From assembly GCA_034429995.1 (NCBI GenBank), contig DAOUEZ010000012.1, positions 15,464-79,463 of the forward strand: a DNA stretch of 64,000 nucleotides, in the 5' to 3' direction. The DNA comes from Dehalococcoidia bacterium. Lineage in GTDB: Bacteria > Chloroflexota > Dehalococcoidia > SM23-28-2. A program made the position numbers and the translations under genes. Below are positions 1 to 25,663 of the stretch, one piece after another; position 1 is the first letter of the stretch, and the number at the start of each line of letters is the position of its first letter. The notes under the pieces were generated by a model. The model had not been told where the DNA came from. It saw only the letters and a list, made by a program, of their open reading frames with translations, and searched no databases.

Positions 1-1
1 C

Positions 2-592
2 TGCTGCGGCGAGAGCGCGCGCAAGGCGGGCGATGAGGAGCTGTTCCAACGTCTGGTCCAGGAGAACATGACCGCCTTCGCCGAAAACGGCGTCAAGAAC
101 ATCGTCGTCTCCTCGCCCCACTGCTACTACACCTTCAGGAACGAATACCCCTTAGCACAAAATGGCTTGCAGGTCATGCATTTCACCCAGTTCCTGGCCG
201 GACTCATTCGGGAGGGTAAGCTGAAATTCAGTAAAGAGGTAAAGAAGAGGGTCACCTATCACGACCCCTGCTACCTGGGGCGCCACAGCGGCGTCTTTGA
301 CGAGCCACGAGAGATCCTGAACAGCATCCCCGGCGTGGAGCTGGTGGAGATGGCCAATCATCACGAGAACAGCCTGTGCTGCGGCGGGGGCGGCGGCCAG
401 GTATGGATGGAGACTAAGCCTGGCGAGAGGCTGGCCGAGGTGCGCGCGCAGCAGGCGCTGGATGTAGGCGCTGAGGTGATGGCTCTGGCCTGCCCCTACT
501 GCATGCTTATGTTCGAAGGTTGCCTGATGCCGGACGTGCTGGAGCGGCTGGAGTTAAGGGATATCACCGAGTTGGTTGCGGAGGCCATGTAG
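2..592 (+). CDS. hdrB: Heterodisulfide reductase subunit B-like protein (two CCG cysteine-rich domains), 5'-truncated by window edge
   Basis: Frame open from window start; CCGES...PHCYYTF and DPCYLG...CCGGGG...CPYC motifs match the CCG domain pattern C-x(n)-CCG-x(n)-C-x2-C of HdrB/HdrD. Confidence 0.65.
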   Translation, partial: CCGESARKAGDEELFQRLVQENMTAFAENGVKNIVVSSPHCYYTFRNEYPLAQNGLQVMHFTQFLAGLIREGKLKFSKEVKKRVTYHDPCYLGRHSGVFDEPREILNSIPGVELVEMANHHENSLCCGGGGGQVWMETKPGERLAEVRAQQALDVGAEVMALACPYCMLMFEGCLMPDVLERLELRDITELVAEAM

Positions 593-594
593 CC

Positions 595-2577
595 ATGGAA
601 GAGCCAAGAATCGGCGTATTTGTCTGCCACTGCGGGAGCAACATTGCGGACACCGTAGATGTTGACGAGGTGAGGGAGTTTGCCAGCGGGTTGCCCGGGG
701 TTGTGTTATCTGTGGACTATAAGTTCATGTGCTCCGAGCCTGGACAGCTCCTAATCAAGGAGAATATAGAGAAGCTGCACCTCAATCGGGTGGTGGTGGC
801 TTCCTGTTCCCCCCGCATGCACGAGCCTACCTTTCGCAAGGCCGTGGCTGAGGCGGGGCTGAACCCCTACCTCTTTCAGATGGCCAACATCCGCGAGCAT
901 GATTCCTGGGTCCACAAGGACGGCGCCACTGAGAAGGCCAAAGCCCTGGTCCACGCCGCCGTCCAGAGGGCTAGCCTGCTGGAGCCTCTGGAGAGAAGGG
1001 AAGTGCCGGTAACTCCCACTGTGTTGATAGTGGGTGCCGGCATTGCCGGCATCCAGGCGGCCCTAAACATCGCTGACTCTGATCACAAGGTGTACTTGGT
1101 GGAGCGAGAGCCCTCCGTCGGCGGCCGCATGATCCAGCTAGACAAGACCTTCCCCACTCTAGACTGCTCATCCTGCATTCTCACGCCCAAGATGGCCTCC
1201 GTTGGCTCCCATCCGAACATCGAGCTTATGACCTACAGCGAGGTGGAGGAGGTCTCCGGCTACATCGGCAACTTCAAGGTCAAGGTTAGGAAGAAGCCTC
1301 GCTACGTGGACTCAGAGCTCTGCAACGGCTGCGGCCTTTGCATCGAGAAGTGCCCCTGGAAGGCGGACAGCGAGTTCGATATGGGGCTAGGCAAGCGCAA
1401 GGCGATCTACACGCCCTTCCCCCAGGCGGTGCCCAACGTGCCGGTCATCGACACGGAGACCTGCGTCTACTTCAAGAAGGGGACCTGCAGGGCCTGCGAG
1501 AAGCTCTGTCCCACGAAAGCCATCGCCTTCGATCAGAAGGAGGAGACCGTCGAGCTAGAGGTGGGGGCGATAATCGTGGCCACCGGCTACGACCTTTTCG
1601 ACCCCTCTCCTATCACTCAATACGGCTACAAGCGCCTGGACAACGTTTTCACTAGCCTGGAGTTCGAGAGGATGTGCAGCGCCACCGGCCCTACCGGCGG
1701 TGAGCTGGTGTTGAAGGATGGCAGCACTCCCCAGAGCGTGGCCATCATCCACTGCGTGGGCAGCCGCGACAAGAACTACTATGAGTATTGCTCACGCGTC
1801 TGTTGCATGTATGCCCTCAAGTATTCCCACCTGATAAAGGAAAAGACCGAGGCAGACGTGTACCAGATGTACATCGACATGCGCTGCTACGGAAAGGGCT
1901 TCGAGGAGTTCTACCAGCGTGTGTCCGACGAGGGCGTCAACTTCGTGCGGGGCAAGGTTGCCCAGGTCACCGACCAGGCGGCAACCGATGAGGAGCAGGG
2001 TAAGCTGGTGGTCGTCGGCGAGGACACCCTGCTGGGCAGGATGGTGCGCATCCCGGTGGACATGGTTATTCTCTGTCCGGCCATGATAGCACGGGCCGAT
2101 GCCGAGGAAGTGGCCAGGCGTTTCCTCATCAGTCGGGGTGCCGATGGGTTCTTCTTGGAGAAGCACCCCAAGCTGGAGCCGGTGGCCACCGCCAGTGCGG
2201 GCGTGTTCGTGGTTGGCTGTGCCCAGGGGCCCAAGGACATCCCGGACACCGTGGCTCAGGCCTCGGCGGGGGCGGCAGAGGCCCTGGCGCTAATCGACAG
2301 GGGGACGGTGGAGATCGAGGCCGCCACTGCCGTAGTGGATGAGGAAATGTGCTCCGGTTGCAAGATCTGCCTGAACTTGTGTCCCTACGGTGCCATCACC
2401 TTCGATGAGGAGAAGGATGTGGCCAGGATCAACGAGGTGCTCTGCAAGGGGTGCGGCGTTTGCGTTGCCGCCTGTCCTTCGGGGGCCATTAAAGGCCGCC
2501 ACTTCACCGACAAGCAGATCTTTGCCGAGATCGAGGGTCTGCTGGCGGACGTCAAGCTGCCCTTGGTGGCAGTTTAA
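595..2577 (+). CDS. hdrA: Heterodisulfide reductase subunit A (FAD/FeS flavoprotein)
   Basis: MEEPRIGVFVCHCGSNI N-terminus, GAGIAG dinucleotide fold, multiple Cx2Cx2Cx3CP ferredoxin motifs; RBS GGAGG 8 nt upstream of ATG 595; long ORF 520..2577 trimmed to the internal ATG. Confidence 0.85.
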   Translation: MEEPRIGVFVCHCGSNIADTVDVDEVREFASGLPGVVLSVDYKFMCSEPGQLLIKENIEKLHLNRVVVASCSPRMHEPTFRKAVAEAGLNPYLFQMANIREHDSWVHKDGATEKAKALVHAAVQRASLLEPLERREVPVTPTVLIVGAGIAGIQAALNIADSDHKVYLVEREPSVGGRMIQLDKTFPTLDCSSCILTPKMASVGSHPNIELMTYSEVEEVSGYIGNFKVKVRKKPRYVDSELCNGCGLCIEKCPWKADSEFDMGLGKRKAIYTPFPQAVPNVPVIDTETCVYFKKGTCRACEKLCPTKAIAFDQKEETVELEVGAIIVATGYDLFDPSPITQYGYKRLDNVFTSLEFERMCSATGPTGGELVLKDGSTPQSVAIIHCVGSRDKNYYEYCSRVCCMYALKYSHLIKEKTEADVYQMYIDMRCYGKGFEEFYQRVSDEGVNFVRGKVAQVTDQAATDEEQGKLVVVGEDTLLGRMVRIPVDMVILCPAMIARADAEEVARRFLISRGADGFFLEKHPKLEPVATASAGVFVVGCAQGPKDIPDTVAQASAGAAEALALIDRGTVEIEAATAVVDEEMCSGCKICLNLCPYGAITFDEEKDVARINEVLCKGCGVCVAACPSGAIKGRHFTDKQIFAEIEGLLADVKLPLVAV

Positions 2578-2593
2578 GGAGGCGCAGTTAACC

Positions 2594-3025
2594 ATGGTAT
2601 CGGGCAACTACGAGCCGACGATTGTGGGGTTCCTGTGCAACTGGTGTGCCTATCAGGGAGCGGACCTAGCGGGCACCTCCCGCATGGAGTATCCGCCCAG
2701 CGTGCGTCCGGTGCGGGTGATGTGCAGCGGCCGTATCGACCCCACCTTTATCCTGAAGGCCTTCGCCGAAGGAGCTGACGGTGTGCTGATTGGTGGCTGC
2801 CATCCGGGCGACTGTCACTATCTGGAGGGCAACTACAAGTGTATTCGCCGCATGGCTATGGTCCACAGGGTGCTGGAACAGTTCGGGATCGAGCCGGAGC
2901 GTTTCCGTGTGGAGTGGGTTTCCGCCAGTGAGGCCCCGAAGTGGGCCAAGATATGCAAGGAGATGACCGAGCAGGTGAAAGCCTTGGGTCCACTTCAGTG
3001 GCAGGAGAAGGTTAGGACGGCCTAG
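2594..3025 (+). CDS. mvhD: Methyl-viologen-reducing hydrogenase delta subunit (MvhD) family protein
   Basis: MVSGNYEPTIVGFLCNWCAYQGADLAG...CHPGDCHY is the MvhD/FlpD signature; AAGGAGG RBS before ATG 2594. Confidence 0.8.
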   Translation: MVSGNYEPTIVGFLCNWCAYQGADLAGTSRMEYPPSVRPVRVMCSGRIDPTFILKAFAEGADGVLIGGCHPGDCHYLEGNYKCIRRMAMVHRVLEQFGIEPERFRVEWVSASEAPKWAKICKEMTEQVKALGPLQWQEKVRTA

Positions 3026-3063
3026 GATGCCGAGTCTGTGGCCTTGGGCTCGGCGGAAGGCCG

Positions 3064-3111
3064 GAGACGAAGGTCGAGACGAAGGTCGAGACGAAGGTCG
3101 AGACGAAGGCC
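3064..3111. repeat. 12-bp tandem repeat gagacgaaggtc x4 (last copy degenerate) in mvhD-mvhG intergenic region
   Basis: Direct reading of sequence 3064-3111; reflected as FVSTFVSTFVST in an antisense spurious ORF. Confidence 0.9.
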
Positions 3112-3141
3112 GAGAGCGAGAAGACGTTAGGGAGGCCTAGG

Positions 3142-4140
3142 ATGGCAAAGCCGAAGATGGCCCTATACTGGGCAGCCAGTTGTGGTGGCTGCGAGATAGC
3201 TGTGGTGCGGCTGTACGAGAAGATTCTAGATGTGGCCAACGCCTTCGAGATCGTTCTCTGGCCGTGCATTATGGACTTCAAGTACAAGGACGTAGAGGCC
3301 CTGCCGGACAAGAGCATTCTGATAACTCTCTTCAATGGTGCCATCAGGAACTCCGAGCAGGAGCACATGGCCCACATGCTGCGGGAGAAGTCGCAGGTGT
3401 TGGTGGCCTTCGGGTCCTGCGCTCACCTGGGCGGCATCCCCGGTCTGGGCAACGTGAGCAACCGCCAGGGGATTTTCGAGAGTTCCTACTGCGAGACGCC
3501 CTCTACGGTCAACGAGGAGGGCACCTACCCGCAGCTAAGCTTCCAGGTGCCCGAGGGGGAGCTTACCCTGCCGGAGTTCTACGACACGGTCTGCGCTCTT
3601 GATCAGGTAGTGCCGGTCGATTACTACATCCCCGGCTGCCCGCCAACGAAGGAGCAGATAGAGAAGGTGATCCAGGCGCTCATAGAGGGGGCGGAGCTGC
3701 CTCCAGCCGGTTCGGTGATCGGGGCATCGGAGAAGACGGTGTGCGATGACTGCCCTCGCACCAAGGGGGACAAGTCGATCAAGGCCATATATCGCCCCTA
3801 TCAGATCATCCCCGACCCCGAGAAGTGCCTTCTGGAGCAGGGTATTCTCTGTGCCGGGCCCGCCACCCGTGGCGGCTGCGGCGCGCCCTGTCCCCAGGTG
3901 AACATGCCCTGCATCGGCTGCTACGGGCCGGCGCCAGGGGCGGTGGACCAGGGAGCCAAGCTTCTGAGTGCAGTGACATCCAATATCGATTCCCGCGATC
4001 CAGAGGAGATCGAACGGATACTGAGCGCCATTCCCGACTCTATCGCCGCCTTCTACATGTTTGGCCTGCCCGCATCGCTTCTGCACCGCCTGAGGCTGGA
4101 GCGGCAGCGCGAGGCAGTGTCGGCCGAGGCGGGGCAGTAG
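3142..4140 (+). CDS. mvhG: [NiFe] hydrogenase small subunit (group 3, MvhG-like)
   Basis: N-terminal CGGCEIA and multiple Cys clusters (CPRTKGD, CIGCYGP) typical of NiFe small subunit; GGGAGG RBS. Confidence 0.8.
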   Translation: MAKPKMALYWAASCGGCEIAVVRLYEKILDVANAFEIVLWPCIMDFKYKDVEALPDKSILITLFNGAIRNSEQEHMAHMLREKSQVLVAFGSCAHLGGIPGLGNVSNRQGIFESSYCETPSTVNEEGTYPQLSFQVPEGELTLPEFYDTVCALDQVVPVDYYIPGCPPTKEQIEKVIQALIEGAELPPAGSVIGASEKTVCDDCPRTKGDKSIKAIYRPYQIIPDPEKCLLEQGILCAGPATRGGCGAPCPQVNMPCIGCYGPAPGAVDQGAKLLSAVTSNIDSRDPEEIERILSAIPDSIAAFYMFGLPASLLHRLRLERQREAVSAEAGQ

Positions 4141-4200
4141 CGGCTCGCGGCCTTCTGAGGCCCAAGAGTGGAGTGGCAGGGAGCGAGGAGCGGAAAAGAG

Positions 4201-5685
4201 ATGACAGAGGCCAAGGTGGAGACGCGGCGAATAACCATTGACCCTATTACGCGGCTGGAAGGACACGGCCGCATCGAGATCTTCCTCAACGATGAGGGGG
4301 ACGTGCAAAACGCCTACTTCCAGGTGCCGGAGTTGCGGGGGTTCGAGAAGTTCTGCGAGGGGCGGCCGGTAGAGACCCTCCCCGTCATTACTGCCCGCAT
4401 TTGTGGGGTTTGCCCCGAGGCGCACCACATGGCCTCCACCAAGACTCTCGATGCAGTCTTCAAGGTGGATCCGCCCTCCCCTGCCAAGAAGCTGCGGGAG
4501 CTGCTGTACAGTGCCTTCATGGTGGCCGACCACGCCACTCACTTCTACGCCCTGGGCGGCCCCGACTTTGTGGTAGGGCCGGACGCCCCTGCCGCCGAGC
4601 GCAACATCGTCGGGGTCATCGGCAAGGTAGGGATGGAGATTGGGGGACAGGTGCTGAAGGCTTTGGCCGCTACCCACGAGGTGGTGGCCATGCTCGGCGG
4701 CAAGTACATCCACCCCACCTGCGGCCTGCCCGGCGGCATAAGCAAGGGCCTCAACGAGGAGGAGCGGGCCAAGGTCGAGGAGATCGCCAAGGCGGCGATC
4801 GAGTTCGGCAAGCTGACGATCAAGATCGTGGACGACGTAGTGCTGGCCAACAAGGCCTACGTGGACATGATCCTCAGCGACACCTTCGCCCACGAGACCT
4901 ACTACATGGGCCTGGTGGACGAGAATAACCACGTGAACTTCTATGAAGGCCAGCTGCGAGTCGTCGACCAGCAGGCCAAGGAAGTGGCCAAGTTCCCCCC
5001 GTCTCAGTACCTGGACTACATTGGCGAGCACGTGGAGCCTTGGTCGTATCTCAAGTTCCCCTTCCTCAAGAGCGTCGGCTGGCACGGCCTGACAGATGGG
5101 CCAAGCAGCGGCATCTACCGGGTAGCTCCCCTGGCTCGCCTCAACGCCGCCGACGGCATGGCTACTCCCCTGGCCCAGGCGGAGTACGAGCGGTTCTACT
5201 CCACCCTGGGGGGCAAGCCGGTGCACGCTACGCTGGCCACCCACTGGGCACGCGTTGTTGAGTTGGTGTACGCCGCCGAGCGCCTGCTGGAGCTGAGCCA
5301 AGACCCGGAGATAACCAGCACGAACATCCGCACCATTCCCACCGAGACGCCCGGCGAGGGCGTGGGGGTGGTGGAGGCGCCGCGGGGGGTGCTGATTCAC
5401 CACTATTGGGCAGACGAAAACGCGGTGGTGAAGAAGGTCAACCTCATCGTGGGGACGGGCCACAACAATGGGGCTATCGCCATGTCCATCAACAAGGCGG
5501 CCAAAGGCCTGATCAAGAAGGGCACGGTGGTCACCGAGGGCCTTCTCAACACCATCGAGATGGCTTTTCGGGCCTACGACCCGTGCTTGGCCTGTGCCAC
5601 CCACTCCTTGCCGGGGCAAATGCCCCTGATCGTCAGCATCTACGACAGCCAGAGGAACCTTATCCAGAGCCTCAGAAGGGACTAG
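4201..5685 (+). CDS. mvhA: [NiFe] hydrogenase large subunit (group 3c, MvhA-like)
   Basis: L1 motif RICGVCPEAH and L2 motif DPCLACATH; start moved to ATG 4201 (MTEAKVE) with upstream GGAG. Confidence 0.85.
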   Translation: MTEAKVETRRITIDPITRLEGHGRIEIFLNDEGDVQNAYFQVPELRGFEKFCEGRPVETLPVITARICGVCPEAHHMASTKTLDAVFKVDPPSPAKKLRELLYSAFMVADHATHFYALGGPDFVVGPDAPAAERNIVGVIGKVGMEIGGQVLKALAATHEVVAMLGGKYIHPTCGLPGGISKGLNEEERAKVEEIAKAAIEFGKLTIKIVDDVVLANKAYVDMILSDTFAHETYYMGLVDENNHVNFYEGQLRVVDQQAKEVAKFPPSQYLDYIGEHVEPWSYLKFPFLKSVGWHGLTDGPSSGIYRVAPLARLNAADGMATPLAQAEYERFYSTLGGKPVHATLATHWARVVELVYAAERLLELSQDPEITSTNIRTIPTETPGEGVGVVEAPRGVLIHHYWADENAVVKKVNLIVGTGHNNGAIAMSINKAAKGLIKKGTVVTEGLLNTIEMAFRAYDPCLACATHSLPGQMPLIVSIYDSQRNLIQSLRRD

Positions 5686-5688
5686 CGG

Positions 5689-6153
5689 TTGCGGACCCTC
5701 ATCCTGGGTCTGGGCAATCCTATCCTCTCCGATGACGCCGCTGGTCTTCAGGCTGCCCGTCGGCTATATGAGCTGATGGGGAGCGGGGACATCGATCTGG
5801 TGGAGGCGGCGGTAGCGGGAATGCAGACTGTCCAGCTTCTGTCCGGCTACGACCGGGCGGTCATCATCGATGTGGTGCAGGACGAGGCGAGCGTGGGAGA
5901 GGTCTGGCGCCTGGATACCGGCGACCTGGAAAGCGGCTCCTCAACGTCCAGTCATGGCATCGGCCTGGGCGAAGCTCTGCGTCTGGCCCGGCTGATGGGC
6001 TTGCCCGTACCAGAGCAAATACTGATCTACGCTATCGCTGCCGCTGATACTTCCACCTTTGGCGAGAGCTTGACGCCTAAGCTCGGGAAAGCCCTACCCG
6101 CCATCGTCCGCAGGATCGCCGCCGACCTGGCCCGTCCTTCGGGCCAGTGCTAA
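5689..6153 (+). CDS. Hydrogenase maturation endopeptidase (HycI/HoxW/FrhD family)
   Basis: LILGLGNPILSDDAAG and GIGLGEAL motifs typical of hydrogenase C-terminal processing protease; TTG start with GAAGGGA RBS, 3 nt after mvhA stop. Confidence 0.7.
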   Translation: MRTLILGLGNPILSDDAAGLQAARRLYELMGSGDIDLVEAAVAGMQTVQLLSGYDRAVIIDVVQDEASVGEVWRLDTGDLESGSSTSSHGIGLGEALRLARLMGLPVPEQILIYAIAAADTSTFGESLTPKLGKALPAIVRRIAADLARPSGQC

Positions 6154-6378
6154 GGGCAAGACCGCGTTCGCCCTTTGCCTTCGGCGAGACGCCGGCTGCC
6201 TGCCGTCTGTGACAAATGGCCGGATGCTTCCTCTTCTCTGTGTAGCTCAGGCATAGGGCTATATTAGTCGAACAATCCTCTAAAAACTCTGTAACATTCT
6301 CGGGCATCGCCCGTCTTTCATTTCAGACGAAAGGCTTTTCAGCCATAACGTCGGGTCCCCTTCCCTTGGCCGGGGAAA

Positions 6379-6420
6379 GTGTCTGCCGGTGGGATACCCC
6401 GCCGGCAGACACATTTTTTT
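6379..6420 (+). terminator. Rho-independent terminator (13-bp GC-rich stem, T7 tract) downstream of hydrogenase operon
   Basis: gtgtctgccggtggg/cccgccggcagacac hairpin followed by attttttt. Confidence 0.55.
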
Positions 6421-6456
6421 GCCTGGTGATGGCCTAGGCTCTGGGCTCTGGTTTTC

Positions 6457-7182
6457 TCACGAGCTGGGGCGAAGTTTGGCGATCAGGAAGGCAGCATGGA
6501 CGCTGTCCAGCTTGCCCATGAGGCGGGGTAGGTGGGGCAGAAGGGGATAGTAGCCGGCGAATGTCAGGCGTTCTACCCAAAAACCGTGATAGTGGCATAG
6601 TTCTGTCAAGCCCTGAAAGCTAAAGACGAGCAGACGACTATCACTCTGAGAGGGATGGCAGATTGCCTGCGAAGGGTCGAAGGCGTTGCCCACCGTGGCG
6701 TCGTTGGGTACGTGCAAGTGCGCCGCCTGTTTGCCCAGCGCCAGGGAGAAGCGGTTGTGCCAGCTAGCCAGGTTGTTGATGGAGAGGATGGCGTAGCCGT
6801 CGGGCCGCAGCACTCGTTTGATTTCCTTGAGGAAGAGATCGATGTTGTGCAAGTGCTCGATGATCTGGTCGGCGTGAATGATATTGAAGAAACGGCTCTT
6901 GTAGGGCAGCGGATCGTTGAGGTCGCCTTTAGTGACGATGACCCCCCGATCAGTGGCTTCTCTGATGCGGTTGTCGATGCACTCGATACCGTATGCCTCC
7001 GACACGCGGGCGCGGTAGGCAACCTGGACGGTGAACTCGCCATCGCCGCAGCCACAGTCCAGAAGGCGACCGCGGGCGCGGGGTTCGATGACATCCAGGA
7101 TCGCTCCCTTGTTGGCCCGCTCGCTCTGCCTGTGGACCCTCTGTAGGTAGGTGATTTCTTTCCTTCCTATATGGACAGCCAA
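6457..7182 (-). CDS. Class I SAM-dependent methyltransferase (Methyltransf_11-like)
   Basis: LLDCGCGDGEF motif I and RVLRPDGYAIL post-motif. Confidence 0.6.
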   Translation of the reverse strand: MAVHIGRKEITYLQRVHRQSERANKGAILDVIEPRARGRLLDCGCGDGEFTVQVAYRARVSEAYGIECIDNRIREATDRGVIVTKGDLNDPLPYKSRFFNIIHADQIIEHLHNIDLFLKEIKRVLRPDGYAILSINNLASWHNRFSLALGKQAAHLHVPNDATVGNAFDPSQAICHPSQSDSRLLVFSFQGLTELCHYHGFWVERLTFAGYYPLLPHLPRLMGKLDSVHAAFLIAKLRPSS

Positions 7183-7430
7183 GAGAATTGCAGCCCTCCT
7201 TGTAGCAGACCCCTGTCCAGGTAGAGGCTGAGGTCATGATTGGCCGAAAGTCTGGCTAGTAAGAATGACGATAGGTTGGCCTCGCTTGTTACGACCGGGG
7301 CGGGAAAAGGTGCAGAGTGGCGGTGCCGCTGGACAAGGCGAGGGTTGGCTGAGGGGGGTGGGGCGGCTATCATTTAATCTATATTGGGAGCTGGCGGACG
7401 CCGGCTTCTTGGACAAGTTAAGGAGTAGCC

Positions 7431-8729
7431 TTGTTTTACGGGTGGTGGGTGGTCTTTGCCTCCGGCGGCATCATCTTTCTGACCACGGGCACTTTCTTCT
7501 ACGGCTTCGGCACCCTGATCATCCCCATGACCAAGGAGTTCGGCTGGTCGCGGGCGGCCATAGCCGGCGCTTTCTCTCTCAGGACAGAGCTTGGAGGAGT
7601 GGGGGCCCCTGTCGTCGGCTATCTGGTCGATCGGGTGGGCCCTCGCCGCCTCGTACTGGCGGGGGTGTTCTTAGTCGGAACGGGTTTCATTCTCCTGAGC
7701 CGCATCCAGGCGGTGTGGCAGTTGTACGCCGTTGCAATGCTCATCGCCATAGGCATGGGTGCCACCGCCGGCCCTGTAGCGATGACAGCGGTCGCTCACT
7801 GGTTCCAGAAGAAACGGGGCCGGGCTTTGGCCTTGATGACAGTGGGCGGTGGCAGCAGCGGCGTGATGGTGGTGGTGCTGGCCTCGCTGATAGCTGCCTT
7901 CGACTGGCGCACGGCCCTGCTCATCACGGGTTTTACCCAATGGGCCATCTGCATCCCTCTGGCCCTGGTCGTGCGCAACCGGCCTCAGGACCTGGGCCTT
8001 CTGCCCGATGGCGAGCCTGACCTCTCGGCCGAGCGGCAGGTAGCCGCCGACGAACGCCAGACCCCTACGGTGGACCCAGATAGCCCTGGCGAGGGGGTGA
8101 CCGCCGGAGAGGATGACGGTCTCACCATAGGCCAGGCGCTACGCACTCGCTCCTTCTGGTTGCTGGCCTTTGCTATGAGCTTGGTCGGCTTCGGTAGCGT
8201 GGCCGTCATTGCCCATCAGGTAGCTTTCCTGGAAGAGTCGCTAGGTTTTTCCTCGCTGATAGCCTCGGCGGTGCAGATGGGCGTGCCGATAGTGAGCCTG
8301 GCTGGCCGACTGGGCTTCGGCTGGCTGGCGGACTATGTAGACAAGCGAAAGGTGATGGCCGCAGCCTACCTCTTCATTGCCGTGGGCATCGTTCTCCTGG
8401 CCACGGTTCAAAGTGCCTGGCAGGTTCCTCTGTACCTCATCATCTTCGCGCCGGGCTGGGGCGGCTCTATCTCCGTGCGGCCCGCTTTTCAGGCGGAATA
8501 TTTTGGCCTGAGAGCCTTTGGCAGCATTCAGGGTCTAATGTTCTTCGTAGCCAGTGTGGGAAGCTTCACTGGTCCTATCTTCGCTGGGGTGATCTACGAC
8601 GCGGTGGATAGTTATCGGCCCGCCTTCCTGATAGTGGGACTGGCCGTTCTGGCGGCTGTCCCTGCTGTGCTGGCAGCGGGAAAGCCGCAAACGGAGCGGG
8701 CGAGGGTGGCTGGCAGCCCCGGGGTGTAG
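7431..8729 (+). CDS. MFS transporter
   Basis: 12 predicted TM helices, MFS-like GxLxDRxGxRR loop (VGYLVDRVGPRR); TTG start after AAGGAG. Confidence 0.7.
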   Translation: MFYGWWVVFASGGIIFLTTGTFFYGFGTLIIPMTKEFGWSRAAIAGAFSLRTELGGVGAPVVGYLVDRVGPRRLVLAGVFLVGTGFILLSRIQAVWQLYAVAMLIAIGMGATAGPVAMTAVAHWFQKKRGRALALMTVGGGSSGVMVVVLASLIAAFDWRTALLITGFTQWAICIPLALVVRNRPQDLGLLPDGEPDLSAERQVAADERQTPTVDPDSPGEGVTAGEDDGLTIGQALRTRSFWLLAFAMSLVGFGSVAVIAHQVAFLEESLGFSSLIASAVQMGVPIVSLAGRLGFGWLADYVDKRKVMAAAYLFIAVGIVLLATVQSAWQVPLYLIIFAPGWGGSISVRPAFQAEYFGLRAFGSIQGLMFFVASVGSFTGPIFAGVIYDAVDSYRPAFLIVGLAVLAAVPAVLAAGKPQTERARVAGSPGV

Positions 8730-8739
8730 GAAGCGCCCC

Positions 8740-9294
8740 TCAGGTCACCGTGAGGGCGACCTGCTGAGCGCAGAGAGGGCATTCGGTCGGGTCGTAGCTG
8801 GGCAGTTCGAGGGCTAGGCAGGCAAAAAAGGGCAGGCCGAAGTCTACGCGGCCGGCAGTGCGATCTACCAGGACAGCCACCCCGATGGGCTCACCCCCTG
8901 CGGCCTGCACTGCCTCCAAGACATCGCGGATGCTGCTGCCGGTGGTAAGAACATCGTCCACCACCAGAGTGCGATCGCCTGGAGCCACCTGAAAGCCGCG
9001 GCCGAAGCGCCGTCCCTCCTTCACCTTCTCGGCGAAGATGCCCCTGACTCCCAACTGGCGAGCTACCTCGTAGCTGAGGATGATCCCCCCGGTGGTGGGT
9101 GCCGCCACCAGTTGCACCCCTTGGGGGCGAAAGTGATCGGCTATCAGGCGGCAGAGCCTTTCGGTGTAGGGCGGCTGCTCTAGAAGGCGAAACTTCTCTA
9201 CGTAGAGGGGCGAATGGCGGCCGGAGGCCAGGAGGAAGTGGCCGTCGAGGATGGCGCCCACCTCCCGTAGGAGATTCTCGATCTCTTCCGACAT
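8740..9294 (-). CDS. pyrE: Orotate phosphoribosyltransferase
   Basis: PRPP-binding motif LVVDDVLTTGSS and OPRTase N-terminal FLLASGRHSPLYVE. Confidence 0.85.
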   Translation of the reverse strand: MSEEIENLLREVGAILDGHFLLASGRHSPLYVEKFRLLEQPPYTERLCRLIADHFRPQGVQLVAAPTTGGIILSYEVARQLGVRGIFAEKVKEGRRFGRGFQVAPGDRTLVVDDVLTTGSSIRDVLEAVQAAGGEPIGVAVLVDRTAGRVDFGLPFFACLALELPSYDPTECPLCAQQVALTVT

Positions 9295-9295
9295 G

Positions 9296-10261
9296 CTAGT
9301 TTTCCGAGTCCTCGCTGGCGAAGGAAACGGAGTGGTTCGGGGCGGGGCCTACGTCCGAGAGGGGCCAATAGGAGAACCAGGTCTTACCGATAATTTTCCC
9401 TTCGGGGATCATTCCCATTGTACTCACCCGCGAATCGCTGCTGTTGTTGCGGTTGTCGCCCAGGACGAAGTACTGGTCGTCGGGGATAACCCAGGAACAC
9501 TTGCCGCTGCATCTGGTTTGGCTGTCTATATACGGCTCGTCCAAGGGCTCACCATTGATGTAAACTACTCCATCGCGAATCTCCACCTTGTCTCCGGGCA
9601 CGCCGATGATCCGTTTGATGAAGTCGCGGTCTCGGCCTTTGGGCGACTCGAAGACCACCACATCACCTCGCTCGGGGCCGCCGAACAGATGGTGAGTGGA
9701 GTCGTCGCCGGCATCGAAGAAGGGGACAAAGTCGAAGAGTCCCAGGTCGAACTGGGCGTAGGCCAGCTTGTTGACAATGATGTACTGGTCATTCTCCAGG
9801 CTGGGGAGCATGCTGCTCCCTTCCACCTTGAAGTTCTGGGCAGTCGATTGGACGGCCAGGAAGACGAGCACGGCTAGAAGGAGCGTCTCGACGACCTCCC
9901 GATAGATGGTAAGGTAGCGGCGCTCGATGCGGCGGGGGAAGATCCCGAGTTGAATGACGCCAGCCAATATGGAGATGGCAGCAAGGGCTATCGGCCCGGC
10001 AAAGATCACGCGGTTCCATCCGGTACCGTGAGTGGCGATCCTGGCAAGCGCACCGACCGCGAACGCTGCGAAACCGACAATGAAGGAAGGAAGGGCGGCT
10101 GCCCAGCGGATTCCCCTGGCGGCAACCTCCTCTTCGGGCTTGCCCGCGGGCTCGTAGGGCGGCCCTGGCTCGATCCAGGGCTCGAGCCAGGGCTCGAATT
10201 CGGGGTCTACCGGTGGACGTGGCCACTGCATAACAACACCGAGGAGGGCTGGGACAATCAC
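9296..10261 (-). CDS. lepB: Signal peptidase I with Pro-rich N-terminal extension
   Basis: GSSMLPSL (box B Ser), KRIIGVPGD (box D Lys), VLGDNRNNSSDSR (box E). Confidence 0.8.
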   Translation of the reverse strand: MIVPALLGVVMQWPRPPVDPEFEPWLEPWIEPGPPYEPAGKPEEEVAARGIRWAAALPSFIVGFAAFAVGALARIATHGTGWNRVIFAGPIALAAISILAGVIQLGIFPRRIERRYLTIYREVVETLLLAVLVFLAVQSTAQNFKVEGSSMLPSLENDQYIIVNKLAYAQFDLGLFDFVPFFDAGDDSTHHLFGGPERGDVVVFESPKGRDRDFIKRIIGVPGDKVEIRDGVVYINGEPLDEPYIDSQTRCSGKCSWVIPDDQYFVLGDNRNNSSDSRVSTMGMIPEGKIIGKTWFSYWPLSDVGPAPNHSVSFASEDSEN

Positions 10262-10395
10262 TCTCCTCAGAATCCTAGTATACCAAATACAGATAACGCT
10301 GGCACACCCTCAAGAGTGTCGCCGCACCCTTTCGTCTCTCTGCTAGAATAGCCCTGGGCCTGCCCAGGGGAGCGAGGCCCTGACGGGGGAAGTCG

Positions 10396-10986
10396 ATGGT
10401 TATCGCCGACGAAGCACAGCTCGTCCGCAGCAGCCGGGAGGGGAATCTGGACGCCTTCAACACCCTGGTGCAGATCTACCAGCGCCAGGTCTATAACCTC
10501 TGTCTGCGGATGTTGGGCTCGGCGGCGGCCGAAGATGCGGCTCAGGAAGCGTTTATCGCTGCCTACCGTCGCCTTAGCAGCTTTCGGGGCGGCAGCTTTC
10601 GGGCCTGGCTCCTGCGCATCGCTGCCAATATCTGTTGCGATGAGCTGCGCCGCCGCCGCAGCCGGCCGGCAGCCTCACTGGAGGCGACGCTGGAAGCGGG
10701 CTCGCCGGCGGACGTCCCCTCCCGCCTGGCCGGGCCGGAGGAAGAGGCCCAGCGGCGTGAGCTGGGCCGGCACCTGCAACAAGGACTGGGCGCTCTGCCA
10801 GCGGAGCAGCGGCTAGCGATTATTCTCCGCGATATCCACGGCCTGAGCTACGAGGAACTGACGGAGGCCTTGGGCTGCTCCCTGGGGACAGTGAAGTCGC
10901 GAATTGCCCGTGGCCGGGCCAAGATGCGCGAATACTTGATGGCGCGACGGGAACTTCTGCCTCGTCAGTTCCGTCTTAAGAAGTGA
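10396..10986 (+). CDS. ECF-subfamily RNA polymerase sigma-70 factor
   Basis: Sigma-70 region 2 (YRRLSSFRGGSFRAWLLRIAAN) and region 4 HTH (LSYEELTEALGCSLGTVKSRIARGR). Confidence 0.8.
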   Translation: MVIADEAQLVRSSREGNLDAFNTLVQIYQRQVYNLCLRMLGSAAAEDAAQEAFIAAYRRLSSFRGGSFRAWLLRIAANICCDELRRRRSRPAASLEATLEAGSPADVPSRLAGPEEEAQRRELGRHLQQGLGALPAEQRLAIILRDIHGLSYEELTEALGCSLGTVKSRIARGRAKMREYLMARRELLPRQFRLKK

Positions 10987-10995
10987 GGACTAGTC

Positions 10996-11817
10996 ATGCT
11001 GGAAGCCTTGCAACAATTTCGCCATCGCCGTTTTCGCCGCGATCTCTCTGCCTATCTGGACAACATGCTTTCCGAGCGGGCGCGCCGTCGCCTGGAGGTC
11101 CATCTCGATTCTTGCCAAGCTTGTCGTCAGGAGCTGGCAGAGCTTCGGGCCACCATCGAGGTCCTGGGTAGCCTGCCCATGGCCGAGGCGCCCCGCTCGT
11201 TCGCTCTGGCGGCCGCTCCCGCGGCGGAGGTGCGGCCGCGGCCAACGGCCAGGCGGCTGGAGTTCGGCCTGCGTCTGGCCACGGCAACCGCCGCTTTCGC
11301 CCTGGCCCTGGTGGTGATCGGCGACTTCGCTGGCCTGCCTGGGGATGGGGAGGAAGAGGAGGAGGAAATGCCGGCGATGCTTGCCCCGGCGGCCGCCGAG
11401 ACGCAAGGAGCGATGGAAGCAGCGCCTGCGGAGACGCCAGAGCCCTCGGTTCCTGGTATCACAGAGGCTGGCCCTCCTCCAGAAGAGACGCCGGCGGCGA
11501 TGGAAGCGGTGCCTGTCGAGACACCAGAGCCTTTGGTTCCCGGTATCACAGACGTGGGACGACCGGCACCGGCGGTCGGCGCGGACGTCTCAGAGGCCGA
11601 GGGTGTGGAGAAGGAGGCGGTGGAGAGGGCAGCGGTCGAAGAGGAAGCTGAGGCTGGCGCGGCGGAGGCCCAAGCGGTGGCTGTGGAGGAGGGCGGCGGC
11701 CTCTCGCGGGAGGAGGCCGTGCGCTGGCTGGAGATCGGCCTGGGCGCTGGCGTAGGCATTCTTGTGGTTCTTTGGGCTTTTGCCCGCCTTCGGAGAAGCA
11801 TCGGAAATCGAGCGTAG
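10996..11817 (+). CDS. Zinc-finger anti-sigma factor with repetitive acidic/Pro-rich region and C-terminal TM helix
   Basis: HLDSCQACRQEL zf-HC2 motif immediately downstream of ECF sigma; internal approx 90-bp coding duplication (ETPEPxVPGIT). Confidence 0.55.
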   Translation: MLEALQQFRHRRFRRDLSAYLDNMLSERARRRLEVHLDSCQACRQELAELRATIEVLGSLPMAEAPRSFALAAAPAAEVRPRPTARRLEFGLRLATATAAFALALVVIGDFAGLPGDGEEEEEEMPAMLAPAAAETQGAMEAAPAETPEPSVPGITEAGPPPEETPAAMEAVPVETPEPLVPGITDVGRPAPAVGADVSEAEGVEKEAVERAAVEEEAEAGAAEAQAVAVEEGGGLSREEAVRWLEIGLGAGVGILVVLWAFARLRRSIGNRA

Positions 11818-11836
11818 CACAAAGGAGGCGATCTTC

Positions 11837-12643
11837 ATGAAGAAAGGGATAGGGGTTCTGCTGATAGCGGGCGCGCTGTTGGCTCTCATTCTGCTCGCTG
11901 CCTGCGATTCCGACTCATCGGCCTCGCCGGAGCAGTCGGGACCGTCGGCAGCCGAGCCGTCGTCGGGGACGCATGCGCCGGCGGCCGTTAGCTTGGCCAG
12001 CAACTCGGAGCCGCAGGGTCTGAGCGTCAGCGGCGAGGGGCGGGTTTCGGCCGCCCCCGACATGGCCGTGCTGGGCTTGGGCGTCTCGGCCAAGGCGTCT
12101 ACGGTCAAGGCGGCCAGCAGCCAGGTTCAGGAAGCCATGAGCGACCTGCTGGACTCCCTGGAGGACAACGGCATCCAGGAGAAGGACATCCAGACGCGCA
12201 GCTTCAGCATCTACCCGGAGTACGACTACCGCAACAACGAGCAGATCCTGACCGGCTATCGGGTTACCCACATGCTCCAGGTGAAGGTGCGGGACATCGA
12301 CAAGGCGGGCGAAGTCATCGACGACGCCGTGGAGGCGGGCGGCGACCTGCTCCAGGTGCAAAGCATCTCCTTCACCATCGACGACACCACAGCCCTGCGC
12401 AGTGAGGCGCGCGAGGAGGCGGTGGCCGACGCCCAGGCCAAGGCCGATGAGTTGGCCACCCTGGCCGGGGTGACCCTGGGCAAGCCCACCTACATCACCG
12501 AATCCATCTCCATGCCCTACCCTCAGCCTTACTACGGCCGCGTTGCCGGCATCACCATGGAGGAGGCAGCGCCAGCTACCGAGATCAGCGCCGGCGAGCT
12601 GGAGGTGGTGGTCAACGTGTACATCACCTACGCTATCGAGTAG
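11837..12643 (+). CDS. SIMPL (DUF541) domain lipoprotein
   Basis: Signal peptide with lipobox LLAAC; SIMPL-like core GYRVTHMLQVKVRD...; AGGAGG RBS. Confidence 0.65.
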   Translation: MKKGIGVLLIAGALLALILLAACDSDSSASPEQSGPSAAEPSSGTHAPAAVSLASNSEPQGLSVSGEGRVSAAPDMAVLGLGVSAKASTVKAASSQVQEAMSDLLDSLEDNGIQEKDIQTRSFSIYPEYDYRNNEQILTGYRVTHMLQVKVRDIDKAGEVIDDAVEAGGDLLQVQSISFTIDDTTALRSEAREEAVADAQAKADELATLAGVTLGKPTYITESISMPYPQPYYGRVAGITMEEAAPATEISAGELEVVVNVYITYAIE

Positions 12644-12766
12644 GCACCTAATCTCTCGATAAGACCTGGCATTGGAGGGCTCGAGGGGGATCATCCCTTG
12701 AGCCCTCGTTTGCCGCTCAGTGTAGTGTTTCACGTTAAGTGAGAGACGAAGGGCCAGACGGCCTCT

Positions 12767-12837
12767 GGCCGCTCATCCTGAGCCTGTCGAAGGGTGAGCG
12801 GGGGCTCATGGTTCGACAAGCTCACCATGAGCGGCCC
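12767..12837. repeat. REP-like palindromic element (SLSKGE-type repeat family)
   Basis: gagcctgtcgaagggtgagcgg core plus gctcatggt/accatgagc inverted repeat; same core recurs in opposite orientation at 35307-35438. Confidence 0.6.
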
Positions 12838-12998
12838 AAAAAGGGAGGCTGCAAGGAATCGAGCGCAGCCATTAGGACTGACATCTGGAAAGTTGCGACC
12901 CGTGATTCATCACGTGTCCTGAAACACCACATCGGTTGCCGCTGAGGCTTAGCGAATGCTAGAATGACGCCACCGAGGGCAAAGGTGGCGAGCTAGCG

Positions 12999-13577
12999 GT
13001 GATTCTTAGCGATCGCTCCATCCGTGAGGAGATAAGGCAGGGGCGTCTGGTGGTCGATCCCCTCGGCCCCAATGCGATCCAACCCTCTAGCGTGGATCTT
13101 CGGCTTGGCAAGAAGTGCAGGATCTTCAAGGCCAGGACCAGAATCGCGTTCATAGACCCGCGGCTCAAGGCGGATGACCTGACAGAGCTCGTCGAGATCG
13201 ATGAACTCCAGCCTCTCGTTATCCATCCTGGCGAATTCTTGTTGGCGACAACGCTGGAGAGGGTGTGTGTCCCTGCGGACTTGGTGGGAAGACTCGACGG
13301 CAAGAGCTCGCTGGGGCGCCTGGGCCTGCTAATACACTCTACTGCGGGCTACGTGGATCCGGGGTGGCAAGGGCATCTGACTCTTGAGCTAAGCAATGTC
13401 TCAAACCTGCCGATAATGCTGTATTACGGTATGCCCGTGTCGCAGATATCCTTTGTGCGCCTCACCGAGCCGGCTGAGCATCCGTATGGCTCGAAAGGCA
13501 TTGGCAGCAAGTATCAAGGCCAGGACGAGCCAATGCCTAGCCGATACTATGAGAACTTCCCGCAACGTAAGCGTTGA
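12999..13577 (+). CDS. dcd: dCTP deaminase
   Basis: MILSDRSIRE...VDLRLG...GWQGHLTLELSN dCTP deaminase/dUTPase fold motifs; GTG start. Confidence 0.85.
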   Translation: MILSDRSIREEIRQGRLVVDPLGPNAIQPSSVDLRLGKKCRIFKARTRIAFIDPRLKADDLTELVEIDELQPLVIHPGEFLLATTLERVCVPADLVGRLDGKSSLGRLGLLIHSTAGYVDPGWQGHLTLELSNVSNLPIMLYYGMPVSQISFVRLTEPAEHPYGSKGIGSKYQGQDEPMPSRYYENFPQRKR

Positions 13578-21974: not shown

Positions 21975-22742
21975 CTACCCATAAACCATCGCTGAGACTT
22001 CTGCGGCTGGGAGACTCGGAGCCGGGAACTCGTTCCAAGTCTTGCCATCCAATATTCGTCCGGCGACCTTCTTGCCAAGTCGCTCGCCTGCTTCGTTGTG
22101 GGCTCCCCACTGTTTGAAGAAGAATGGCACGCGTGTTTGCTGACACTGTTGTCGTATCTCCCGCACCCAGTCTGCCTTCATGGGGCGGGCGTGCGGCCCG
22201 CTTTCCCCGCCGACAATCACCCAGTCGATGCCCTGCAGATCCAGGCGAAGAGGGCCCAACAGCGGCTCGCACGATAGAAAGTGCACCTTGGCGGGCACCT
22301 TCCGCAGGTCATCGATTCGACACGTCCACCGCTGATTCTCTACTGATACGCCCATCCAGACGTTGTCGGGCCAAGACAAGCGTGGCGCCAGCTGCACCAG
22401 TCGCTCTGATCGCTTCGTGAGTATCTGGAAGGTGTGCCAATCGGCCTCTGCCATGACGCTGAGCACCGACTCGATGAACTCGTCCGGGACATCCTCATGG
22501 AACAGATCGCTCATGGAGTTGACGAAGATCATGTGGGGCTGAGTCCACTTCAGGGGCTGCTCAAGTCGCTCCGGTCGGAGCTGGAGGTCAAAGCCGCGTT
22601 CGTACGGATGGCCGGGTACGCCTCGAAAGCGCTCCGCAAAGGTTTCAGCGTAGCAGTGAGCGCAGCCTGGGCTCACCTTTGAGCATCCGGTGACGGGATT
22701 CCACGTTGCCTCGGTCCACTCGATAGAGGAGCGCTGTGCCAT
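21975..22742 (-). CDS. Phage Gp37/Gp68 family (DUF5131) three-Cys-motif protein
   Basis: N-terminal IEWTEATWNPVTGCSKVSPGCAHCYAE (C-x6-C-x2-C) characteristic of PF07505; convergent with tcmP-like gene, 8-bp gap. Confidence 0.7.
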   Translation of the reverse strand: MAQRSSIEWTEATWNPVTGCSKVSPGCAHCYAETFAERFRGVPGHPYERGFDLQLRPERLEQPLKWTQPHMIFVNSMSDLFHEDVPDEFIESVLSVMAEADWHTFQILTKRSERLVQLAPRLSWPDNVWMGVSVENQRWTCRIDDLRKVPAKVHFLSCEPLLGPLRLDLQGIDWVIVGGESGPHARPMKADWVREIRQQCQQTRVPFFFKQWGAHNEAGERLGKKVAGRILDGKTWNEFPAPSLPAAEVSAMVYG

Positions 22743-24010: not shown

Positions 24011-25663
24011 GTGATGGACATGTGGCAAAAGGGTCGTTTCGGCAAAGGACTGCTTTTGTGGGCCTTGGCGCTCGTTGTGGTTGGCGGGCTGGCGGTGGCC
24101 GCTCTTGTCGCCAGCCAGGTTAGTTTCGCCAGCGGTTCTCAGAGTGCGCCTCAGTGTTGGACGCCCACGCCGACCCCAACGCCTCCGGCTCCGCCCTACC
24201 TCGTGACTGACAAGAATGCTGATCCTGGGAAGTGCGAAGAGGCGGAGATCGAGCTCATCGTGCGAGGTGAAGGCGATCCGGTGTACAAGCCCCTGGACGT
24301 GATGCTAGTCCTGGACGAGTCGGGGTCCATGGGGAAGCCGTCCGGCGACCCACCCATCGGGTATCTCAAGGACGCCGCCAAGAAACTGCTGCAGGAGCTG
24401 GATTCGAGCCAGGACCGAGTCGGCCTGGTGTCCTATTCGACCAACGCCCACCTCGGCCGGCAACTGACCCACAACTTCAGCCTGGTGGAGAGCGCTATTA
24501 ATGGTTTGAGCGCCGATGGCTACACCAACATCGGTGACGGCGTCTACGATGCTCAGAAGGAGCTGGACGACCACGGCCGTACCGATGCCATGCCGGTGAT
24601 GGTGGTGCTGAGCGACGGTGTCGCCAATCGTAGGCACGCAGCCGCCGGTTGCAGAAGCGTATGTCCCGCTTCTCACAACGACTGCACGGGGGACGCCATC
24701 AACCAGGCAGTGACGGCCAAGACCAAGGGCACAATCCTGTTCACGATCGGTCTGGGCTTCGAAGATCCTGACTTTGTGTGCCCCAGAGGGACCGACCTCG
24801 GCGCTGTGGTAGCGTTGGCCCGCGAAACGCTGCAGACCATGGCCTCCGGTACGGAGAATTACTTCGAGGCGCCGAAGCCTAGCGACCTTGAGGGCATCTT
24901 TGAAGACATCGCCGAGATCATCACCAACATCGCTGGTTACGACGTAACGGTCATCGAGATCCTGCCGTCCTACATGCACTACATCGCTAGCTCAGGGAGC
25001 CCGGCGCATACCACACACGATGCGGGGCCGCCGGAGACCGTGACGTGGGACTTGGGCAATGTGGCCATCGACGAAGAGTACCATATTACCTTCAGCGCGG
25101 AAGTGGACGTGGCGATGGCAGGTTCTTCCGTCCTGGCGGACGTATGGCCCGACACCCGAGTCGAGTATTTTGACTACCTGGACAGCCCGCACTCGGTGCC
25201 CTTCCCAAAGGCATGGGTAACTGTGGAGGCTTGCCCCACACCTACGCCTACACCTACACCTACGCCTACACCTACGCCTACGCCTACACCGACGCCCACA
25301 CCCACCCCGACGCCTACGCCTACGCCCACACCCACCCCGACGCCTACACCGACGCCTACACCGACACCCACGCCCACACCGACGCCCACCGCTACGCCCA
25401 CGCCTACACCAACGGCAACACCTACCCCAACGCCCTCGCCAACACCTGCTCCGACGGTCACGCCATCTGCTCTGCCGGAGGCCGAGACTCCCACGCCGAC
25501 CGTGCCGCCTGGCATGCCAGCGGCTCTGCCGGCAACCGGGGGCAGCGGCGCAACGCCGTTGACCACGGTTTGGCCCGCGCTGGCGCTCATGGCTGGTGCT
25601 ATGGCCTTGATGCTGGCGGGCACGGGGAGTGCGGTGTGGTCGCTGAGGCGGCGGAATAAGTAG
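24011..25663 (+). CDS. Cell-surface von Willebrand factor A domain protein with (TP)n linker and LPXTG sortase anchor
   Basis: Signal peptide; MIDAS motif [13 protein letters not shown]; about 70-residue PTPTPT linker; LPATGG + hydrophobic segment + RRRNK tail. Confidence 0.7.
25234..25445 (+). repeat. Coding tandem hexanucleotide-based (acgcct/acacct) repeat encoding (TP)n linker
   Basis: Direct reading; inside VWA surface protein ORF. Confidence 0.85.

Follow-up and report, generated by a model that had tools for sequence, protein, structure and literature searches.

A BamD-like iron-sulfur subunit in place of HdrB in a predicted bifurcating [NiFe] hydrogenase operon of an uncultured Dehalococcoidia bacterium

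The 64-kb stretch of DNA analysed here (the window) comes from an uncultured Dehalococcoidia bacterium and opens within a six-gene operon for a BamD-like Fe-S subunit, HdrA, MvhD, MvhG, MvhA and a maturation protease. Both the Mvh/HdrA bifurcating architecture and the group to which this otherwise ordinary hydrogenase belongs are well known; what is new is a BamD-type output subunit in place of HdrB. We favour, with modest confidence, the reading that the operon encodes a soluble flavin-based bifurcating H2/ferredoxin [NiFe] hydrogenase. A redox protein that docks on the complex is its most likely high-potential partner, the electron-transferring flavoprotein (ETF) being the best candidate. 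Hdr-Mvh-like gene sets of sediment bacteria are routinely annotated as heterodisulfide reductases and, since their hosts make no CoM-S-S-CoB, the acceptor of these sets has been in question. For the BamD/EtfD branch of the CCG (non-cubane-cluster-binding, NCB) superfamily, structures from 2025-2026 point to a disulfide pocket that is blocked and to ETF as the partner. The reading proposed here exchanges a vague "unknown disulfide" for a specific and testable prediction, H2 <-> ferredoxin + ETF, covering a protein family common in Chloroflexota, with thousands of homologues and an almost constant pairing with hdrA and mvhD.

The output subunit resembles BamD and EtfD

The first gene of the operon is cut by the start of the window, with 561 nt of it lying upstream. 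Locus L001 (JGI Ga0315541_1000016, 160 kb) has the same base as the window at every position from 1 to 13000 and therefore supplies the missing upstream DNA, with the full gene at L001 6848-7999. The upstream DNA covered amounts to 9.4 kb, which together with the window gives ~73 kb examined in total. A first-pass annotation, made from the window alone, had described the hydrogenase unit as complete; all its genes are indeed present, and completeness requires the 561 nt that precede the window. The same annotation had called the first gene hdrB-like, which the full gene does not bear out. It encodes a single soluble protein of 383 residues in which an HdrC-like 2x[4Fe-4S] domain (73 bits to HdrC) is fused to two CCG domains (Pfam: two CCG and Fer4). 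The cubane motifs CxxCxxCxxxCP are found at C27-C37 and C69-C79, and the protein starts 26 residues ahead of the first of them, with no N-terminal heme-b transmembrane domain.

The CCG part scores 232 bits against EtfD of M. smegmatis (PDB 9OJN), the mycobacterial ETF:menaquinone oxidoreductase (PMC13083937), and 30 bits against HdrB, EtfD being its best match among solved structures. In agreement with this, the AlphaFold2 (AF2) model of a close homologue matches the fold of EtfD best (E 2e-23, TM 0.70), followed by LutA and then HdrB (TM 0.48). The fused subunit shares 55% identity over 381 residues with the protein that occupies the BamD position in another locus (L104), and 29% over 95 residues with a canonical bacterial HdrB (L019) whose own score against methanogen HdrB is 225 bits. 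In a HMMER search against 1.84 billion cluster representatives, the nearest families were either soluble proteins of ~385 residues or EMO/EtfD-type proteins of 640-780 residues that match in their C-terminal ~320 residues only, and Pro-His was present at positions 226-227 in nearly all of the top 150 matches. Cluster members of ten representatives carried the names "(Fe-S)-binding protein" and "Fe-S oxidoreductase" only, with no named BamD among them.

The two CCG domains hold 5 + 5 cysteines, all invariant. Within the window fall C188-C189, S225-P226-H227-C228 (nt 113-124), C277, C313-C314, W322 (nt 404-406) and C351-P-Y353-C354 (nt 491-502). The first CCG motif reads CC...CC...S-P-H-C, the first cysteine of the CxxC being replaced by Ser225, and S-P-H-C, W322 and Y353 are invariant across 121 homologues. 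The spacing from His to Trp (95 residues) and from Trp to Tyr (31 residues) is the same as for His230, Trp325 and Tyr356 of BamD, whereas canonical HdrB has a CxxC without the His, no Trp, and Phe replacing the Tyr. The protein also falls outside the definition of HdrB, which comprises two CX31-39CCX35-36CXXC motifs, open catalytic clusters and a separate HdrC. By its sequence, then, the fused subunit is of the BamD/EtfD type and not of the HdrB type, and His227, Trp322 and Tyr353 are predicted to occupy what in HdrB is the heterodisulfide pocket.

Recent structural work gives these residues a functional context. In the class II benzoyl-CoA reductase (BCRII) of Geobacter metallireducens, the His, Trp and Tyr residues of BamD are reported to occlude the heterodisulfide site, the Cys-to-Ser change to turn the distal cluster into a modified [3Fe-4S], and cryo-electron tomography to place ETF docked in situ on BamD as the high-potential acceptor (preprint, bioRxiv 10.64898/2026.04.10.717634). 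In EtfD and EMO the proximal non-cubane cluster is capped by the same His, and the two clusters take part in ETF-linked electron transfer, not catalysis (PMC13083937; bioRxiv 10.64898/2026.08.18.745454). The EMO preprint also describes E. coli as a host that makes NCB domains of this kind with clusters in place.

The likeness to BamD extends beyond the pocket. BamD is likewise a soluble fusion of ~385 residues combining two cubanes with an NCB part, it has the S-P-H-C motif and an identically spaced triad, and its gene stands immediately upstream of HdrA-type and MvhD-type genes. The window operon differs from BamDEF in having neither the BamB/C tungsten module nor the NuoEFG-like BamGHI module, its input being H2 via MvhAG, and in pairing a single 660-aa HdrA and a 143-aa MvhD with the output subunit, where BamDEF has the fused double-HdrA BamE (~1040 aa) and the long BamF. 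Genes for BamB, BamC, a double-HdrA BamE, a long BamF or BamGHI were not seen in the window or upstream. EtfD shares the P-H motif with the window subunit, but it has C-T and C-P-H-C where the latter has C-C and S-P-H-C; moreover EtfD and EMO (S. aciditrophicus EMO) reduce quinone and have a heme-b membrane domain at the N-terminus.

The hydrogenase is of the Mvh type by its architecture

The motifs RICGVC and DPCLAC reported by the first-pass annotation are real. The L1 motif RICGVCPEAHH of MvhA starts at nt 4396 (RICGVC at 4396-4413), and the L2 motif DPCLACATH is encoded at 5578-5604, within AYDPCLACATH; the motifs of the MvhA group have been given as ICGxCxxxH and AYDPCxxCATH (PMC6085437). 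A C-terminal tail of 26 residues follows the L2 His and is expected to be removed at maturation by the adjacent protease. Among PDB enzymes, MvhA scores 395 bits against NiFe-HydL of A. mobile (7t2r_D), 389 against MvhA (5odc_F), 357 against 9SW2 and 321 against HoxH. Its membership of group 3 therefore stands, these 3c/3d-like enzymes giving 321-395 bits and those of groups 1, 3a and 3b 120 bits or less. The best NCBIfam match is VhuA, at 400 bits (below the cutoff of 800), the next scoring 172.

The L1 and L2 motifs had also been taken as group 3c signatures. They are nearly the same in HoxH and in A. mobile HydL as in the window MvhA, so that the motifs alone do not discriminate, and since the window MvhA gives equal scores with methanogen MvhA and with the Acetomicrobium bifurcating enzyme, the 3c-type call rests on the neighbouring genes, namely those for MvhD, HdrA and a long MvhG. 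MvhG aligns over residues 5-314 to 5odc_E with its cluster cysteine motifs conserved, whereas only its N-terminal half matches short small subunits (7t2r_E, 90 bits; HoxY, 45 bits). MvhD reaches 189-191 bits against solved MvhD chains (5odc_D, 8rvu_F). HdrA aligns to solved HdrA over residues 1-652 with 793 bits (8rvu_a) and 769 bits (5odc_A) and retains all cluster cysteine motifs; it is predicted to be an FAD and multi-[4Fe-4S] flavoprotein and the site of flavin-based bifurcation.

A neighbour-joining (NJ) tree of 76 MvhA relatives and 5 PDB references, with leaves labelled by their own gene neighbourhood, places the window MvhA in a large clade of MvhD/HdrA context that includes Methanomassiliicoccales and Bathyarchaeia, apart from the MvhA sequences of class I methanogens. 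The tree is midpoint-rooted with an unreliable root, and it supports the placement by context while providing no formal separation of 3c from 3d with its 5 PDB references. Relatives with a long small subunit have mvhD upstream in 49 of 58 cases, and hdrA as well in 44 of them; neither gene accompanies any of the 15 relatives with a short (~180-aa) small subunit. On the basis of this architecture we accept the hydrogenase as Mvh-type, group 3c. A Chloroflexi/Proteobacteria clade of MvhA in bacteria has already been described (PMC6085437).

MvhA, MvhG, MvhD and HdrA align nearly end to end with the MvhAGD-HdrABC complex of Methanothermococcus thermolithotrophicus (5ODC) and with Methanothermobacter Hdr (8RVU, 9SW2), sharing the Ni-Fe ligands, the small-subunit cluster motifs, the [2Fe-2S] motif of MvhD and the cluster motifs of HdrA. 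Electrons from H2 would thus take the same route as in methanogen Hdr-Mvh, via the bifurcating FAD to ferredoxin. In contrast to that system, one fused 383-aa protein replaces the separate HdrC and HdrB, with His, Trp and Tyr where the HdrB pocket for CoM/CoB is open. The host is also bacterial, and no methanogenesis genes were seen, mcr and CoM/CoB genes being absent from the ~73 kb of window and upstream DNA, which is less than the whole genome.

The trio of output subunit, HdrA and MvhD recurs with several input modules

Using a family alignment of the fused subunit, a metagenome scan recovered 80 loci. Behind the genes for soluble proteins with the S-P-H-C motif (SPHC-type) there is nearly always an hdrA-type gene and mvhD where the contig reaches that far. 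Among those with an HdrA-like partner of ~1040 residues, many lie in clusters with the order AFOR, small protein, NCB, long HdrA, long MvhD, NuoE-, NuoF- and NuoG-like (L104, L118, L129; Pfam), the order in which class II benzoyl-CoA reductase has bamBCDEFGHI. Close paralogues at 62-66% identity, as well as more distant SPHC-type proteins, combine with several input modules, so that the NCB-HdrA-MvhD trio behaves as a reusable core. Partners observed include MvhD with FdhA/FdhB (L091) and a GltD-like protein with MvhDGA (L090). FlxA/B/C-like genes accompany an SPHC-type protein in L146 and L155, where ORFs (open reading frames) of ETF size beside the homologues were considered as ETF and rejected, these being the FlxA/B/C-like genes. 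An SPHC-type protein and canonical HdrB and HdrC occur in one cluster in L092, L098 and L146.

Other bacterial Mvh-HdrA loci have canonical HdrB and HdrC (L019, L034). Fused Fe-S/CCG proteins of another kind stand by hdrA-mvhDGA in metagenome-assembled genomes (MAGs) of Hyphomicrobiales and Bryobacterales (L026 3258-6477; L043 1030-2904); their first CCG half is without any cysteine (GDYAA / NSGND / DPHT), and some proteins of this type also lack the last cysteine of the second half. They are a third type of acceptor-side subunit in bacterial Mvh-HdrA modules. Because loci use canonical HdrB with HdrC, SPHC-type proteins or fusions with a cysteine-free first CCG half, the acceptor side of bacterial "Hdr-Mvh" modules is heterogeneous. 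Similar gene sets have been predicted in sulfate reducers and in marine Chloroflexi, in the latter with hdrB/C fusions, and the fused subunit was there interpreted as a heterodisulfide reductase; those complexes are known from genomes, none having been characterised biochemically (PMC2702500; PMC5736913; PMC6085437).

Proposed electron path and acceptor

In the proposed mechanism, H2 would be split at the Ni-Fe site of MvhA and the electrons would reach the FAD of HdrA by way of the three MvhG clusters and the MvhD [2Fe-2S] cluster, a path for which homology provides the basis. There the electron pair would be divided, bifurcation at this FAD being inferred from solved homologues. The low-potential electron would travel through the ferredoxin-like domains of HdrA to ferredoxin, and the high-potential electron would enter the two cubane and two non-cubane-type clusters of the fused subunit. 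This subunit would hand it to a docking redox protein and not to a heterodisulfide, with ETF as the leading candidate by analogy with BamD and EMO/EtfD. A docking protein is the most likely acceptor because His227, Trp322 and Tyr353 would fill the pocket and Ser225 replaces a cluster cysteine. The same residue pattern, together with the work on BamD, EMO and EtfD, suggests that the fused subunit would not cleave heterodisulfides. Formation of the complex, the choice of acceptor and the direction of the reaction in the cell are likewise proposals, and the reverse reaction, ETF(red) + Fd(red) -> H2, may be possible.

With standard potentials of -414 mV for H2, about -480 mV for ferredoxin and about 0 mV for ETF, we estimate that reduction of ferredoxin and ETF together by H2 would be strongly exergonic overall, and that the reverse reaction would proceed only where H2 is very low.

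Several observations weigh against this reading. The principal weakness is that no etf gene was found in the ~73 kb examined; acyl-CoA dehydrogenase and EMO genes were likewise not found there, and etf genes were equally missing beside those SPHC-type homologues whose neighbours are annotated. The contact between ETF and BamD comes from one preprint, with an in-situ map at ~10 Å (bioRxiv 10.64898/2026.04.10.717634). HdrA is of the 660-aa methanogen type and not of the ~1040-aa BamE type, and MvhD is of the short type; no subunit reaches the equivalog cutoff of its NCBIfam model. The predicted occlusion of the pocket is deduced from sequence only, and the AF2 model belongs to a homologue of 90% identity and not to the window protein, with a pLDDT of ~90 in the NCB domain and below 50 in the cubane domain. 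The fused subunit also has an extra cysteine, Cys152, which forms C152-C153 in 118 of the 121 homologues where Bam-type proteins have G-C, and it retains a CC pair that is absent from EtfD. With Cys152 and this CC pair the distal cluster could be a complete, perhaps reactive, non-cubane [4Fe-4S], and may differ from those of BamD and EtfD.

A wider proposal, possible in our view but tentative, is that the SPHC-type NCB protein is a general output module of bacterial HdrA complexes that docks ETF or other proteins, and that the operon encodes a soluble H2:ferredoxin/ETF bifurcating hydrogenase, which in the reverse direction would be a confurcating one that makes H2 from ETF(red) and Fd(red). 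If true, H2 metabolism and the beta-oxidation/ETF pool of sediment Dehalococcoidia would be coupled directly, with no need for reverse electron transport at the membrane, and the missing "heterodisulfide" would be explained for a large class of non-methanogen "Hdr-like" complexes. The extra Cys152 may in that case also mark a new type of distal cluster.

Alternative readings of the operon

The fused subunit could instead be the joined HdrC and HdrB (HdrD) of a classical heterodisulfide-type Hdr-Mvh complex and reduce a disulfide or trisulfide, for instance that of DsrC or of an unknown thiol cofactor. Such a function fits the presence of two CCG domains with 5 + 5 invariant cysteines and the CC pair kept in the first domain, unlike in EtfD, and Cys152 might stand in for the lost CxxC cysteine; a soluble HdrD with MvhADG-HdrA has been annotated in this manner in sulfate reducers (PMC2702500). 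The top NCBIfam match of the subunit, TfrB, is a thiol-using enzyme, but its 154 bits are far under the cutoff of 385, and HdrB is matched with 30 bits only. S-P-H-C and the His/Trp/Tyr triad correspond to the pocket-blocking residues of BamD and, for the His, to that of EMO/EtfD, while dsrC, dsrAB and thiol-cofactor genes were not found in the window or upstream. The SPHC-type proteins that stand beside canonical HdrB and HdrC in L092, L098 and L146 suggest a different role for the two kinds of subunit. We hold this classical reading to be doubtful.

A non-bifurcating enzyme, or an NAD-linked hydrogenase of the group 3d or Acetomicrobium type, seems very unlikely. It draws on the scores of MvhA, whose top PDB match 7t2r_D (395 bits) is marginally over 5odc_F (389) with HoxH at 321, on L1 and L2 motifs that are near-identical across MvhA, HydL and HoxH, and on the midpoint-rooted NJ tree, which parts the window clade from class I methanogen MvhA. 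The small subunit, however, is of the long MvhG type and not of the ~180-aa type of 7t2r_E and HoxY, mvhD and hdrA are adjacent where 0 of the 15 relatives with short small subunits have either, and NuoE/NuoF-like genes (HydBC/HoxFU) were found neither in the window nor upstream, so the Hox/HydABC reading was rejected on gene content. An Flx-type, NAD(P)H-linked complex resembling FlxABCD-HdrABC is hardly credible here. The first-pass annotation had described the unit as FlxABCD/Hdr-Mvh-like, of which what holds is a cytoplasmic Mvh-type [NiFe] hydrogenase linked to an HdrA flavoprotein. The MvhD/FlxD-like gene and hdrA would also suit an Flx complex, and FlxA/B/C-like genes do occur in some homologous SPHC-type loci (L146, L155); nevertheless a genuine [NiFe] hydrogenase serves as the input module, and FlxA (FAD/NAD-binding), FlxB and FlxC are found neither in the operon nor in its flanks, the window and the 9.4 kb upstream included. 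Gene content thus refutes an Flx complex at this locus.

Operon layout and genomic neighbourhood

Gene assignments were made from a six-frame ORF listing, direct reading of window positions 1-6500, and Pfam and NCBIfam. The features are given in Table 1, and all elements of the gene order proposed by the first-pass annotation, from the CCG gene to the terminator, were confirmed on the + strand. All subunit genes are contiguous and come with a dedicated protease and a terminator; they are tightly spaced, with Shine-Dalgarno-like sequences before mvhD, mvhG and mvhA, and the start codon of the protease lies 4 nt past the mvhA stop. The same arrangement is found again in related genomes, which argues that the operon is not a chance pattern of ORFs.

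Table 1. Features of the hydrogenase operon, in window coordinates
Feature	Position	Strand	Remarks
Fe-S/CCG gene, 3' part (196 codons + stop)	2..592	+	truncated by window start; begins CCGES
hdrA, 660 aa	595..2577	+	full-length alignment to solved HdrA; NCBIfam HdrA2 871 bits
mvhD, 143 aa, [2Fe-2S] adaptor between hydrogenase and HdrA	2594..3025	+	Pfam FlpD, E 1.4e-57
Spacer ORF, 37 codons	3027..3140	+	inside operon; 12-bp tandem repeat at 3064-3115
mvhG, 332 aa, long three-cluster small subunit	3142..4140	+	240 bits to 5odc_E
mvhA, 494 aa, [NiFe] large subunit	4201..5685	+	NCBIfam VhuA 400 bits
Maturation endopeptidase (HycI/HybD family), 154 aa, TTG start	5689..6153	+	TIGR00072 98 bits (cutoff 47); Pfam HycI
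Rho-independent terminator	6379..6420	+	15-bp stem with 11 G-C pairs, 4-nt loop (stem-loop 6379-6412), T7 tail

The ORF between mvhD and mvhG encodes MPSLWPWARRKAGDEGRDEGRDEGRDEGREREDVREA, followed by a stop codon, and its 12-bp repeat is present in 4.3 copies; the ribosome-binding region GTTAGGGAGGCCTAGGATG occurs twice. In four Dehalococcoidia MAGs (L008, L009, L010, L023) the same ATG lies 90 or 114 nt upstream of mvhG and in frame with it, so that MvhG would gain an N-terminal extension of 30-38 residues, with a conserved MPxLWPWARRKA and then a stretch rich in K, A and E. In the lineage of the window the ORF is out of the mvhG frame because the distance is 115 nt, and since the sequence is the same in four independent assemblies, the frame is no assembly error.

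The operon belongs to a hydrogenase island that extends upstream of the window on the same contig (L173 1-8696). Directly ahead of it lie genes for a GAF histidine kinase and a response regulator of the OmpR type, and farther upstream hypE, hypD, hypC, hypF and a short hypA (78 aa), together with a second [NiFe] hydrogenase large subunit of 429 residues that best matches group 3b ShyA/HydA and has its own maturation protease. The search for hyp maturation genes suggested by the first-pass annotation was thus successful in the adjacent DNA, hypB being unseen in the upstream island. The annotation had also placed hdrC/hdrB partner genes upstream; the regulators, hyp genes and second hydrogenase occupy this region, and no separate hdrC or hdrB, nor any flx or dsrC gene, is present in the 9.4 kb.

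Source of the DNA and other features of the window

The bacterial host proposed earlier for this Hdr-Mvh-type hydrogenase is confirmed by the nearest genomes at species level, which are Dehalococcoidia MAGs with an MvhA identity of 94-97%. One of them is "Dehalococcoidia bacterium SM23_28_2", for which a literature search gave no matches. The identical MvhD protein is present on more than 20 public contigs.

The remaining 58 kb of the window gave no clue to the acceptor: genes of the dsrC, dsrAB, flx, etf and Wood-Ljungdahl kinds are missing, and what is there is housekeeping genes together with riboflavin, feo and glycosyltransferase genes. When the window was scanned with Rfam and for tRNAs, three tRNAs were all that came up, far from the hydrogenase locus. 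Contig Ga0307439_1000024 (L087) is near-identical to the window over 19.2-25.8 kb save for an indel of ~30 nt, probably inside a gene of 550/557 residues without Pfam match (24011-25663), a sign that strains differ between samples.

A DUF5131 (phage Gp37/Gp68-like) gene stands alone among housekeeping genes at 21975-22742 (-). It adjoins a second GAF-kinase/OmpR-regulator pair (~23.0-27.3 kb), a paralogue of the one that precedes the hydrogenase operon. Pentapeptide repeats and a TIR_2 domain are joined in one protein at 35650-36699 (+), possibly with a role in defence or signalling. Its gene adjoins a pair of genes with VWA and helical domains and a second AIRS/AIRS_C gene at 34208-35263 (-), which is HypE/SelD/ThiL-like.

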